64,000 nucleotides of DNA, taken from a virus (Duplodnaviria > Caudoviricetes). The notes below the pieces were generated by a model that ran no database searches, was not told the origin of the DNA, and saw only the letters and a program-made list of their open reading frames with translations. Position numbers and translations under genes: made by a program. Within the stretch, counting starts at the first letter, position 1. Every line of letters starts with the position of its first letter. The stretch covers positions 96,001 to 160,000 of the IMG/VR virus record IMGVR_UViG_3300033463_000014, one strand, 5' to 3'. This document shows positions 60,476 through 64,000 of the stretch, one piece after another.

Positions 60476-60805
60476 CTATGTCAAACAATATCCCTTGCCG
60501 ACCATTTTTACGGTCGCCTCGCACGGATACGCCATCCTCGGGTTGTCGATCTGCGAGATGATCGTTTTCGATGAGGTGAACACGACCCTGAGCCGCCTTT
60601 CCGGGTCATCCGCGAAGTAGAACTGGATCATCTTGTACGGACCCCTCACGCCGTCGACATTGGCGTGGTTCGATATCCTGGCCTCCGTCCTCGTGATGAC
60701 GATGCGCCTGTTCAGGATCTCCGGCATCTTCGCCTTCTCCCCCTCCATGATGCCCGGGATGTCCAACGCCGAGAATTTCCTTATGACGCCGTCTGAGCTC
60801 ACCAT
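60476..60805 (-). CDS. Small beta-rich protein immediately downstream of the DGR RT; candidate accessory protein
   Basis: KFS..EILNR.I.I..IQF..RVVFTSSK.II.QI..P.EATV pattern; overlaps the RT 3' end by 200 nt. Confidence 0.6.
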   Translation of the reverse strand: MVSSDGVIRKFSALDIPGIMEGEKAKMPEILNRRIVITRTEARISNHANVDGVRGPYKMIQFYFADDPERRLRVVFTSSKTIISQIDNPRMAYPCEATVKMVGKGYCLT

Positions 60806-61823
60806 AGAGATCGTCGATCCCTTCGCTTTTTCTGAAGTTGTATGTCTGCGCCCACCTGCACACTCCGACGGCGCTTGAAGCCGACCCCATCATGCTGAGG
60901 ATCCTGTTCGGGCCAAGTTGGATCCCGTCAGCGTCGGAACGCTCGACGACCCTACGTATCCCGCGCATCCTACGGGCGATCCGCCTTGCCGTCGACCTCC
61001 TGAGCAGGAGCTTCCGCGGGAACGACCGGTATCCGCAGAAGTCGAGCCCGTCCCTCGTCCTGGCGATTTCGCGCTTCGAGAACGAGAGCCGCATCTCCCC
61101 CTCCACGAAATCCGCGATGCCGTCGGAGACGGCGCGCATCTCGTCCCTGCACCCGAAGGCGATGAAGTCGTCGCAGTACCGGACGTACTTTTTGACGCGC
61201 ATGCGCTCCTTGACGTGGTGGTCCAGGAGGTCCATGTAGATGTTCCCGAACCACTGGCTCGTCAGATTTCCGATCGGGCACCCGACCCCCGTGTCCGTCT
61301 CGAACGAGTCGATCCAGTCGAACAGGATCCTCAGCGCGTCAGCGTCCTTCAGCCCTCGCTGGATCGCCTCCTTCAGGACGTTGTGGTCGATGCTGTGGTA
61401 GAACCCGCGGATGTCGCACTTCAGGTAGTGCGAGGAGTTCCGTACGAACACGGAAGCCCTATGCACCGCCCTGTGCGTTCCCTTCCCGACGCGGCAGGCG
61501 TAGGAGTCCGAGATGAATCGCGGCTCCCAGACGAGCGGTCCGAGGACGTCCACGACCGCGTGCTGCACGATCCTGTCCGGATAGAACGGGAGGATGTGTA
61601 TCTCGCGGCGCTTCGGCTCTGTGATGACCCTCATCCTGTAGGGGGCTGGCCTGTACGCCCTGTCGAGGAGCATCTCCCTGATCCCGGCGATTGTCCCGTC
61701 CGGGTCGTCCATCCGCGCGGAGACGTCCTCGGTCCGTTTCGCCCCTCTGGCGGCGTTGAGGAGCGCCCTCCGGATGTTCTCCGGATCGCAGATCCTCTGA
61801 TAGACATTCCCCACGCGCTTCAC
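60606..61823 (-). CDS. DGR reverse transcriptase
   Basis: GTG-KRVGNVY start, EPKRREI..PDRIVQHA, SYACRVGKGTH, YLKCDIRGFY, GCPIGNLTSQ, YVRYCDDF, LDFCGY. Confidence 0.95.
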   Translation of the reverse strand: MKRVGNVYQRICDPENIRRALLNAARGAKRTEDVSARMDDPDGTIAGIREMLLDRAYRPAPYRMRVITEPKRREIHILPFYPDRIVQHAVVDVLGPLVWEPRFISDSYACRVGKGTHRAVHRASVFVRNSSHYLKCDIRGFYHSIDHNVLKEAIQRGLKDADALRILFDWIDSFETDTGVGCPIGNLTSQWFGNIYMDLLDHHVKERMRVKKYVRYCDDFIAFGCRDEMRAVSDGIADFVEGEMRLSFSKREIARTRDGLDFCGYRSFPRKLLLRRSTARRIARRMRGIRRVVERSDADGIQLGPNRILSMMGSASSAVGVCRWAQTYNFRKSEGIDDLYGELRRRHKEILGVGHPGHHGGGEGEDAGDPEQAHRHHEDGGQDIEPRQCRRREGSVQDDPVLLRG

Positions 61824-62009
61824 TTGTCCAACATCCAATCTCACGGAGTCATGGCGTGAGCATAAAAACGCGGGCGGGCGTTCGGCCAGACGCCTACCAG
61901 ACCGCCCGCGTCTCCGTCGTGTGTTTCGCCGCCGTGGAAACCGCCATGGCGACGGGGCTACGCGCTCAGCCGGAGTCAACTCGAAGGCGTTGCCTTAACC
62001 AACCTCGGA

Positions 62010-62128
62010 TCGAACCGCGACCGCCGTTGTTCACGTTCACCGTGGAACGGGAATTGTTCGCGTTACGGTAGAGCGGACCGATCGCGACAAGCGAGGTCGT
62101 TGTCCAATTACCGCCAGCGTTAACGGCC
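62010..62128 (-). repeat. DGR template repeat (TR), 119 bp
   Basis: Aligns without gaps to both VRs; every mismatch is at a TR adenine (minus strand); rich in AAC/AAT codons. Confidence 0.95.
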
Positions 62129-62227
62129 GTCACCAGCGCGGAGCCATCCGGCGTTTCCGCCGGCAAAGACAGTATACCAAATTTTCCTGACGTGTTGCCG
62201 AAACCCGTGGGAAGCCGGAAAATTTCG

Positions 62228-62251
62228 CCGCCCGGCCGGGCGGCCGGGCGG
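62228..62251. other. GC-only perfect inverted repeat between target 1 and TR
   Basis: CCGCCCGGCCG-GG-CGGCCGGGCGG. Confidence 0.75.
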
Positions 62252-62335
62252 TTTCTTTCTCTTTTTCTTCTTCGTTTTGCGTCTCGCGTCTCACGTTCCG
62301 CTTTCAACGCGCCCGTTTCCGTCCCGCACGTACAT

Positions 62336-63484
62336 TCACGCGTCCGGGGGCTGTACACTGTGGAGACTCCGGCTCGAACCGCGACCGCCGCTGCTCACGC
62401 TCACCGTGGAACGGGAATAGTTCGCGTTACGGTAGAGCGGACCGATCGCGACAAGCGAGGCCGTAGGCCAATTACCGCCAGCGTAAACGGCCTTGTACTG
62501 CCCCATGTAGTAGTGGCTGCCGAAGGAGTTCATCGCGCCGTCGAAGCCCTTTGTGGACGTACTTTCTGTCGTGTTGTCCCATTTCGCGCCGCTGTAGGTG
62601 TACGGGGCCGCCTGCCTGAGCCACTGGTTCTGGAGACCGCACATCTCCTCGCATCCGACCGCCGAGACCATAGGGTAGCCAGCGGTGTCGACATGGCCGC
62701 CGGTTGTGTCGGATGTCGGTGGGTGGCTCGCGTCCGATCCGGAGGTGGACTCCTTGGTGCCGCAGTTGGAGCCGAGGGCGGCGAAGTAGAACTCCATGTC
62801 GTCCAGCAGGGTCTTTCCGACGTTGGCGTAGCCTGTCCAGAACTGGGTCATGGACTTGGAGTGGAGGCGTGTCCCTCCGAATCTCGTCTCCGGTGCTGCG
62901 ATGGTCCCGCTCGCGTTGTATATGTCAACCCAGGTGTCTGTCGGCCTGACGTACACCATGCCGGACGGGTCGTCGCAGGCCGGTCGGAAATTGACGGCCC
63001 AGACTGATTTGGGTAGGATATCCCCTGCCGTCCATCCGGCGAGTGGGTGTAAGTTGGGCGAGAATACGGACGCAGGTGCCATGACGAGGTCTGCCGCGAC
63101 ATTGCGGCAGATGGTGTGGAATCCCCCAAGGCGACGAGTGTTCGACCCGTCGTAGGCTGCCCCGGACGAGGTCTGCCCAGACGGGCATGAAGGGCTGCCG
63201 GATATGACGACGCCTCCGTCGACGGTGAGATAGACTGAGTAGTCCGTTCCCGGATGGATGGATCCCGTGTCCAGTGCCGAGGACACCGTGACCGTCACGT
63301 CGTCCGGTAGCCATACGCGTGTCTGACCGACGAAATAGTTGATCCCGCCGAGGACGGTGACCTGGGTCTTGGATGCGTACAAGACGACTGGGTCCTCTGG
63401 CAGGGTCTCGTGGAGGGAGCCGTTGAGGTCGGAGAGCAGGAGCGCGATCTCGTTCGGCGACATGTTCTGGAGCGGTTTAGGCAT
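62336..63484 (-). CDS. DGR target 1, Mtd-like tropism determinant (C-type lectin-fold C-terminus)
   Basis: RLGGFH, SVW..FRPAC.DP.GM..V..WVDIY, GK.L....EF...ALG, AGGNW..GGRG, as in Bordetella phage BPP-1 Mtd. Confidence 0.88.
   Translation of the reverse strand: MPKPLQNMSPNEIALLLSDLNGSLHETLPEDPVVLYASKTQVTVLGGINYFVGQTRVWLPDDVTVTVSSALDTGSIHPGTDYSVYLTVDGGVVISGSPSCPSGQTSSGAAYDGSNTRRLGGFHTICRNVAADLVMAPASVFSPNLHPLAGWTAGDILPKSVWAVNFRPACDDPSGMVYVRPTDTWVDIYNASGTIAAPETRFGGTRLHSKSMTQFWTGYANVGKTLLDDMEFYFAALGSNCGTKESTSGSDASHPPTSDTTGGHVDTAGYPMVSAVGCEEMCGLQNQWLRQAAPYTYSGAKWDNTTESTSTKGFDGAMNSFGSHYYMGQYKAVYAGGNWPTASLVAIGPLYRNANYSRSTVSVSSGGRGSSRSLHSVQPPDA
62374..62492 (-). repeat. Variable repeat VR1
   Basis: 8 mismatches to TR, all at TR adenines. 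Confidence 0.95.
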
Positions 63485-63567
63485 GGTGTTGTTGTCTCCT
63501 CAAACGTACATCCGGCCTTGGCTTTCGCCTAGGGATTTCGTTTTTTCTGATTTTCGCGTTTCACGTA

Positions 63568-64000
63568 TCACGTTCCCCTCCGAGCCCTGTGGAGACTCCG
63601 GCTCGAACCGCGACCGCCGTTGCTCACGCTCACCGTGGAACGGGAATGGTTCGCGACACGGTAGAGCGGACCGATCGCGACAAGCGAGGTCGTTGCCCAA
63701 TTACCGCCAGCGTAAACGGCCTTGTACTGCCCCATGTAGTAGTGGCTGCCGAAGGAGTTCATCGCGCCGTCGAAGCCCTTTGTGGACGTACTTTCTGTCG
63801 TGTTGTCCCATTTCGCGCCTGTGTAGGTGAATGGCGACGCCTGCCTGAGCCACTGGTTCTGGAGACCGCACATCTCCTCGCAGCCGACGGCGGAGACCAT
63901 TGGGTAGCCTGCTGTGTCGACGTGTCCGCCTGTCGTGTCGGAGGTCGGCGGGTGGCTCGTGTCGCTACCTGACGTGCTCTCCTTGGTTCCGCAGTTTGAT
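63568..64000 (-). CDS. DGR target 2, Mtd-like paralog; 5' part outside the window
   Basis: C-terminal protein nearly identical to target 1; ORF runs off the window edge. Confidence 0.88.
   Translation of the reverse strand, partial: SNCGTKESTSGSDTSHPPTSDTTGGHVDTAGYPMVSAVGCEEMCGLQNQWLRQASPFTYTGAKWDNTTESTSTKGFDGAMNSFGSHYYMGQYKAVYAGGNWATTSLVAIGPLYRVANHSRSTVSVSNGGRGSSRSLHRARRGT
63603..63721 (-). repeat. Variable repeat VR2
   Basis: 7 mismatches to TR, all at TR adenines. Confidence 0.95.

Follow-up and report, generated by a model that had tools for sequence, protein, structure and literature searches.

One template repeat for two tandem Mtd-like genes in a diversity-generating retroelement of a 181-kb rumen phage, with a small OB-fold-like gene behind the reverse transcriptase

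The 64,000-nucleotide stretch of DNA analyzed here (hereafter, the window; GC content, 58%) covers bases 96001–160000 of the IMG/VR virus record IMGVR_UViG_3300033463_000014, a phage genome of 181,382 bp with direct terminal repeats and an estimated completeness of 100%. Sequence near-identical to the window is present in cattle-gut metagenomes. We found that the window carries a diversity-generating retroelement (DGR), and we estimate a probability of approximately 85% that this element is a phage DGR of the BPP-1 functional type, in which one template repeat (TR) serves two tandem Mtd-like genes. The assignment is based on a reverse transcriptase (RT) with DGR motifs, differences between the TR and the variable repeats (VRs) at adenines only, a VR near the 3΄ end of each gene for a lectin-fold target protein, a pair of initiation of mutagenic homing sites (IMH beside the VRs, IMH* beside the TR), and pairing between the spacer and the IMH. 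The coordinates of these features are listed in Table 1.

The repeat anatomy and the adenine specificity were observed directly. We compared the reverse complements of the repeats, in other words the coding strand, because TR adenines appear as T on the plus strand. All 15 mismatches between the TR and the two VRs were located at TR adenines, for which the chance expectation is approximately (24/119)^15 = 4e-11, and VR1 and VR2 differed from each other at nine positions, every one a TR adenine site. A sequence-only reading of the window had counted eight and seven mismatches, all at TR adenines, and had described the two VRs as unlike each other; these counts were reproduced exactly. Ordinary divergence among three paralogous repeats would account for the existence of the repeats and for nothing beyond it, whereas all mismatches fall on one base of one copy and the flanking 160 nt contain no differences. 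We therefore regard this explanation as extremely improbable. With flanks that are identical and VR differences limited to adenine sites, the action of the DGR can here be separated from ordinary divergence.

The TR also has an adenine-rich design that excludes stop codons. Among its adenines, 23 of 24 occupy the first or second codon position and eight AAY codons are present; no substitution of any A can produce a stop codon, and approximately 1e13 peptides are reachable. The VRs end 38 and 35 nt ahead of the stop codons of the target genes. To the earlier suggestion that more targets might lie past the edge of the window, the complete genome gives a negative answer: a BLAST search of all 181 kb with the TR returned the TR, VR1 and VR2 only, and thus there are exactly two targets and no third. 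What lies beyond the edge is the 5΄ part of target gene 2, whose complete open reading frame (ORF; 374 aa) extends to window position 64692 (positions 4568–5692 of our extracted locus L004).

Table 1. Features of the retroelement and its immediate surroundings (positions in the window)
Feature	Position	Strand	Remarks
Conserved downstream gene, ~142 aa	60030..60458	-	49% identical to the gene at the equivalent place in locus L005
109-aa basic OB-fold-like protein, candidate non-Avd accessory factor	60476..60805	-	200-nt overlap with the RT tail, in a different frame
DGR reverse transcriptase	60606..61823	-	PF00078; phrog_1423 3e-98
GC-rich hairpin followed by UUUUU, terminator-like	61864..61915	-	RNA fold; lies between TR and RT, immediately before the RT start
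Spacer 10-mer GACUCCGGCU, predicted primer region of the DGR RNA	61968..61977	-	complementary to both IMHs
IMH* (TCCGAGGTTGGTTAAGG), diverged counterpart of the IMH	61993..62009	-	adjoins the TR end
TR	62010..62128	-	119 nt with 24 A; same reading frame as the VRs
Target gene 1, Mtd-like tail protein, 382 aa	62336..63484	-	PF21916 9e-13; phrog_11262 (tail) 2e-36
IMH of VR1 (GCCGGAGTCTCCACAG)	62358..62373	-	16 nt; identical to the VR2 IMH
VR1	62374..62492	-	8 mismatches to the TR, each at a TR adenine
Target gene 2, Mtd-like tail protein, 374 aa	63568..64000 (3΄ part)	-	PF21916 7e-17
IMH of VR2 (GCCGGAGTCTCCACAG)	63587..63602	-	16 nt; identical to the VR1 IMH, missing after the TR
VR2	63603..63721	-	7 mismatches to the TR, each at a TR adenine

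The two target genes had been called Mtd-like from the letters of the sequence, and this was confirmed by Pfam, by a sequence match to solved Mtd and by the predicted fold. The two proteins share 86% identity; each contains the second Mtd domain, PF21916, and matches PHROG 11262 (‘tail protein’). A phmmer search of target 1 against Mtd in the Protein Data Bank gave an E-value of 5e-4. The AlphaFold2 model of target 1 (predicted local distance difference test [pLDDT] score, 80; residues 1–24 at low confidence) was compared with Mtd structures, a check that the sequence-only reading had proposed, and matched them over its full length: for 1yu4, Foldseek gave an E-value of 1e-21 and a template modeling (TM) score of 0.66 over ~380 columns, and for the set 1yu0–1yu4 the E-values ranged from 1e-21 to 3e-19 and the TM scores from 0.64 to 0.67 over ~380 columns at 21% identity. 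The overall fold includes the C-terminal lectin domain that carries the VR. The N-terminal family Mtd_N (PF18454), for which BPP-1 Mtd scores 1e-16, gave no reported match with either target.

We next consider how the two genes are related. Their DNA is ~70–95% identical over most of the gene length, but they are 100% identical over ~127 nt upstream of the VR (62493–62620 and 63722–63849) and over 33 nt through the IMH (62341–62373 and 63570–63602). The identical flanks, together with VRs that differ at nine TR adenine sites, indicate that diversification followed the event that last equalised the flanks. The identical 3΄ ends look like the product of gene conversion, or of a recent partial duplication, confined to that region. 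The simplest history is that duplication or gene conversion equalised the 3΄ ends and that at least one VR was then rewritten in an adenine-specific manner. Because the residues encoded at the variable positions are not the same in VR1 and VR2, the simplest reading is also that the two targets are diversified separately, which supports the earlier proposal of two separately diversified receptor-binding proteins. A different possibility is that just one Mtd-like gene still serves as a DGR target or contributes to the virion, the other being a redundant duplicate heading for loss. The 86% identity of the paralogues would be compatible with this, as would the rarity of two-target cassettes in the clade: among 80 loci of the family described below, the only other locus with two VRs was L019, or one of ~60 that could be scored. 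However, both ORFs are full length with Mtd domains, the IMHs are identical, each VR differs from the TR only at A, and each VR has private substitutions at A sites (TR positions 27, 31 and 101 in VR1; 64 and 65 in VR2). We consider this possibility quite improbable and retain the reading with two live targets.

The IMH region agrees with this reading. Where both VRs continue into GCCGGAGTCTCCACAG, the TR continues into TCCGAGGTTGGTTAAG; the IMH versus IMH* pattern noticed earlier, an identical 16-nt segment after both VRs that is absent after the TR, was thus borne out. Moreover, the spacer contains a 10-mer, GACUCCGGCU, which starts 32 nt downstream of the TR and can form 10 of 10 Watson-Crick pairs with the IMH, compared with six Watson-Crick and two GU pairs with the IMH*. 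This complementarity, again a direct observation, covaries in the related loci L005, L014, L051 and L063: the L005 spacer AGCCGGAGTA pairs with its IMH TACTCCGGCT and the L063 spacer AGCCGAGGGT pairs with its IMH ACCCTCGGCT, and pairing is found at 9 of 10 positions in L051 and L014. As a control, BPP-1 was treated in the same way, and a 9-nt complement of the VR IMH was found at spacer (Sp) positions 48–56, ending exactly at A56. The nucleotide Sp A56 is the experimentally mapped priming nucleotide of BPP-1, for which primer-IMH pairing has been published (PMC5703328) and was proposed by Naorem et al. in 2017 to set the direction of homing (PMC5703328). The complementarity is consequently not a new feature, the BPP-1 case having been described in that study (PMC5703328); here it provides a concrete predicted priming site. 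As the same IMH is complementary to one spacer site, both genes would be able to receive cDNA.

Two further observations concern the spacer. The hairpin at 61864–61915 might be the 3΄ end of the template RNA, or else a limiter or attenuator of RT expression. Throughout the clade, the VR ends in GAGCCG where the TR has GATACG (GATCCG in the present phage), and a conserved spacer motif, YCCNNCGGCTGR, is located 10–46 nt after the TR; together, these may serve as a signature by which TR ends and priming sites can be located within the clade.

The RT is 32% identical to BPP-1 Brt, and its motifs IGNLTSQ and RYCDDF align with IGSLTSQ and RYMDDI of Brt. These motifs bear out the earlier description of an intact RT with a YCDD active site. 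The conserved core ends after ~330 aa; the remaining ~75 aa form an unconserved tail that overlaps the next gene. Between the present phage and L005, whose RT shows an equivalent read-through of ~350 nt, the tail is 31% identical in the RT frame versus 64% in the overlapping frame, and in low-GC relatives the RT ends within ~20 nt of the start of the small gene behind it. The tail is thus not a domain but the product of unconstrained read-through.

Avd is present in ~74% of DGRs and is not universal. We searched for it in the whole genome and in 33 records of related viruses (completeness of 90% or more in 16), and obtained no match to bAvd (PF22296) at E ≤ 1, with BPP-1 Avd (2e-37) as the positive control. 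A negative result with PF05635 in this genome was discarded as uninformative, because, in a six-frame search, this family also misses the Avd of BPP-1 itself (AY029185); calls of Avd absence that rest on PF05635 alone are unsafe. Wu et al. in 2018 reported no recognised accessory gene in 29% of catalogued DGRs (PMC5758913), and the accessory genes in their survey are avd, HRDC, MSL and CH1 only (PMC5758913).

Behind the RT of the present phage is the ORF for the 109-aa protein, preceded by GAAGGGA ahead of its ATG. This protein is 64% identical to its L005 counterpart, and the differences between the two are distributed over the three codon positions as 36/21/57, which indicates that the ORF is real and under purifying selection. 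It has no Pfam, PHROG or NCBIfam match. The AlphaFold2 model (pLDDT, 88.5) has as its nearest solved folds the oligonucleotide/oligosaccharide-binding (OB) folds of SSB, PriB, Rim1 and Teb1, with middling scores (Z, 4.5–6.5; Foldseek E ≥ 0.09). The family built around this protein comprises 1128 representatives at 50% clustering, with profile matches from 1e-9 to 2e-53; its mean isoelectric point is 8.1, and that of the present protein is 9.5.

The genomic association of this OB-like gene with DGRs was likewise observed directly. A DGR-type RT was located beside the gene in 72 of the 80 IMG/VR loci found with the family profile; the RT mostly ended within ~30 nt of it, and nearly all loci with enough upstream DNA showed the order VR-TR-RT-gene and adenine-specific TR/VR pairs. 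In two database proteins, P0069 and P0130, the OB-like protein is fused in frame to the RT. In ANMV-1 and a Methanosarcinales virus, too, the RT is followed by this gene, under the annotation ‘hypothetical’. In the searchable DGR literature, we found no description of an OB-like gene behind a DGR RT. The small ORF after brt in BPP-1, Bbp4, was considered as a relative of the family and rejected (hhalign probability, 0.1).

We consider the 109-aa protein a likely RT cofactor. In its full form, the reading that we hold to be slightly better than an even bet is that the protein replaces Avd in a large Avd-less DGR clade, binding the RT and the TR-spacer RNA for self-primed, adenine-mutagenic cDNA synthesis; that this clade would span ANMV-1-like archaeal viruses to the present 181-kb rumen phage; and that its high-GC members would translate the OB-like protein from a frame overlapping the unconstrained RT tail. 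The competing view is that the gene is a passenger phage gene without a cofactor role, the RT of the clade working alone or with a host factor. The passenger view is in line with the ~29% of catalogued DGRs that have no recognised accessory gene (PMC5758913), with the weak match to the OB fold and with locus L006, which has no OB-like gene. It fits poorly with a gene that stands beside the RT in 72 of 80 loci from widely differing viruses (the archaeal ANMV-1 among them), that occurs in frame with the RT in P0069 and P0130, and that is under purifying selection despite the overlap with the RT frame. In addition, the protein is basic like Avd, and no Avd was found wherever the OB-like gene was found. 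On balance, a mere passenger appears rather unlikely, and we keep the cofactor reading.

Several loci of the family differ in arrangement. The RT of L006 (8001–9314) has a C-terminal extension that resembles a second small ORF of 96–98 aa located after the OB-like gene in L007 (9309–9605) and L008 (9300–9590); the extension and this second ORF may represent another DGR-linked module. In L019, two VRs (4732–4867 and 8908–9043) accompany one TR, and the OB-like gene is located upstream of TR-RT. In L079, L080 and L088, adenine-specific TR/VR pairs (~4700–5150) abut the C-terminal half of the OB-like gene, and no RT was detected within 5 kb; these loci may be remnants or rearranged cassettes.

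We also looked for population-level evidence. Logan contigs of a single cattle-gut sample (two runs) reproduced positions 60000–62085 without a difference; the contigs (cattle-gut runs X1–X4) are interrupted at the TR and the VRs, and X1 has no coverage of VR1. An apparent contig joint labeled ‘goes back 1229’ proved to be an artefact of the window ending inside target gene 2, and a depth-3 contig with 15 differences over the TR came from a different, related element and not from this phage. In run X2, record 10 and loose ends at 62007/62009 represent other TR-like sequences that keep TCAGCCGGAGT beside the TR end, which indicates that related DGR-bearing phages co-occur in the same rumen sample.

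A number of points weigh against our interpretation of the element and its cofactor. Minor VR variants, which would be direct evidence of current activity, cannot be seen in assembled contigs. No near-identical strain for a VR comparison was found among viral and metagenome contigs, either with exact patterns or with scans seeded by the target 1 protein, and RT-seeded scans returned relatives at 51% identity or less only. A GC hairpin of the BPP-1 type was not found after the VRs, whose 3΄ regions fold no better than shuffled sequences (z, +1.4 for VR1 and –1.3 for VR2). The substitutions at TR positions 7, 92 and 98 are identical in VR1 and VR2, and may reflect shared ancestry or selection and not independent events. 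The first stop codon in the RT frame comes 200 nt inside the next gene, and the resulting unconserved tail of ~75 aa is unusual. As to the cofactor, the OB-fold assignment is based on middling scores (Z up to 6.5; Foldseek E ≥ 0.09), and profile searches can miss a very divergent Avd.

Some of these points would also be explained by a fossil DGR, in which both VRs were diversified in the past and are now frozen in an inactive element: population-level variation could not be shown from contigs, the RT frame, lacking the usual stop codon, continues into the gene behind it, no hairpin was found after the VRs, and three substitutions are common to both VRs. On the other hand, the RT core and all catalytic motifs are intact, the TR keeps its adenine-rich, stop-free design, and not a single non-adenine mismatch is present in 2 × 119 nt, with VR flanks that are 100% identical. 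Both IMHs and the complementary spacer site are perfect, and a long RT read-through is also found in the relative L005. A fossil thus appears improbable, and we infer that the DGR is currently active and that it switches tropism, as in host-range switching by BPP-1.

Taken together, these results suggest the following mechanism, in which the steps of cDNA synthesis and homing are modeled on known DGRs. Minus-strand transcription would run through the TR and the spacer, and the RT, presumably with the small basic OB-fold-like protein acting as its cofactor in place of Avd, would copy the TR into cDNA, misincorporating opposite the 24 template adenines as in other members of the family. The cDNA would then replace the last 119 nt of either tandem Mtd-like gene, so that up to 14 codons of the lectin-fold receptor-binding face could be recoded; ~1e13 peptides would be possible, and a stop codon could not arise. 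Both VRs should be addressable, because both carry the same IMH. By analogy with BPP-1, the spacer 10-mer would mark an RNA primer, which would direct the RNA-cDNA hybrid to each VR at its 3΄ border; imperfect pairing of the 10-mer with the IMH* would leave the TR itself unaltered. The targets probably arose by tandem duplication and now have different variable residues; therefore, a virion could hold two independently evolving receptor-binding tips.

All parts of the DGR are located on the minus strand, and tail-fibre-like genes flank the cassette on both sides. In the direction of transcription, the order is a 627-aa fibre-like gene, a 150-aa gene, target 2, target 1, the TR, a spacer of 186 nt, the RT, the 109-aa ORF, the ~142-aa gene, a 582-aa fibre-like gene with a CBM5/12-like motif and a sigma-70 gene. 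The gap between target 1 and the TR is 207 nt long and contains no gene. In this gap, between the target 1 stop codon and the TR, is an 11-bp GC hairpin (62227–62252), terminator-like on the plus strand, which may separate the target transcript from the TR transcript. The ~142-aa gene has no Pfam, PHROG or NCBIfam match, and the N-terminus of its L005 copy resembles a signal peptide. It was rejected as a clade-wide component, being shared with L005 only and unrelated to the gene at that place in L007 and L008, and its link to the DGR is uncertain.

The present element provides a clean natural case in which one template serves a recently duplicated pair of receptor-binding genes, carried by a large rumen phage. 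The spacer-IMH complementarity extends the primer-IMH pairing model of BPP-1 to a distant Avd-less clade, and the cassette adds a well-resolved case to the Avd-less group with an OB-like helper. If the proposed reading is true, the cofactor requirement of DGRs has been solved in at least two structurally unrelated ways, and the two-target layout shows that a single spacer/IMH pairing suffices to address several genes. A helper role, if confirmed biochemically, would account for the functioning of roughly one quarter of DGRs in the absence of Avd, and the helper could supply compact parts for targeted-mutagenesis tools.

Compared with the BPP-1 DGR (mtd-avd-TR-brt), the present element is alike in having an Mtd-homologue target of equal size and fold with the VR at its C-terminus, a TR upstream of the RT, adenine-only TR/VR differences, an IMH/IMH* pair, and a spacer segment that is more complementary to the IMH than to the IMH*. 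However, BPP-1 has one target whereas the present phage has two in tandem, and the RT active site is YMDD in BPP-1 but YCDD here. The present phage further differs in that no Avd and no GC hairpin after the VR were detected, in that a small OB-fold-like gene follows the RT, and in that Pfam Mtd_N was undetected in its targets.

ANMV-1 (KP703175; PMC4372165) and the Methanosarcinales virus vir525 (BK063673) share the gene order of the present phage: in both, a phrog_11262/Mtd-like target is followed by a TR, an RT and, immediately behind the RT, a small protein of the OB-like family. The closest deposited RT is 42% identical to the present one. They differ in having a single target, small genomes and archaeal hosts, and their small gene does not overlap a long RT tail.

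Approximately 13% of catalogued DGRs have two targets (PMC10743442). The gut phages nd4 and nd12 (PMC10743442) each combine one TR with two VR-bearing genes whose VRs are unlike each other. Their targets are unrelated (tentaclin and a DUF6273 protein) and Avd is present, whereas the present targets are tandem Mtd paralogues with 86% identity and no Avd was detected. The Avd-less Architecture A and Lineage 3 (Wu et al., 2018; PMC5758913) share with our element a TR-RT core without avd, HRDC or MSL. A small OB-like gene behind the RT is not listed in that survey (PMC5758913), and its CH1 proteins are acidic and 160–169 aa long (PMC5758913), in contrast to the basic 109-aa protein described here. 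Two-target DGRs and Avd-less cassettes are thus already documented. Particular to the present phage are the tandem Mtd paralogues with equalised flanks, the large 181-kb rumen phage as the carrier, and the membership in an Avd-less clade with an OB-like gene, which here is overlapped by a run-on RT frame.

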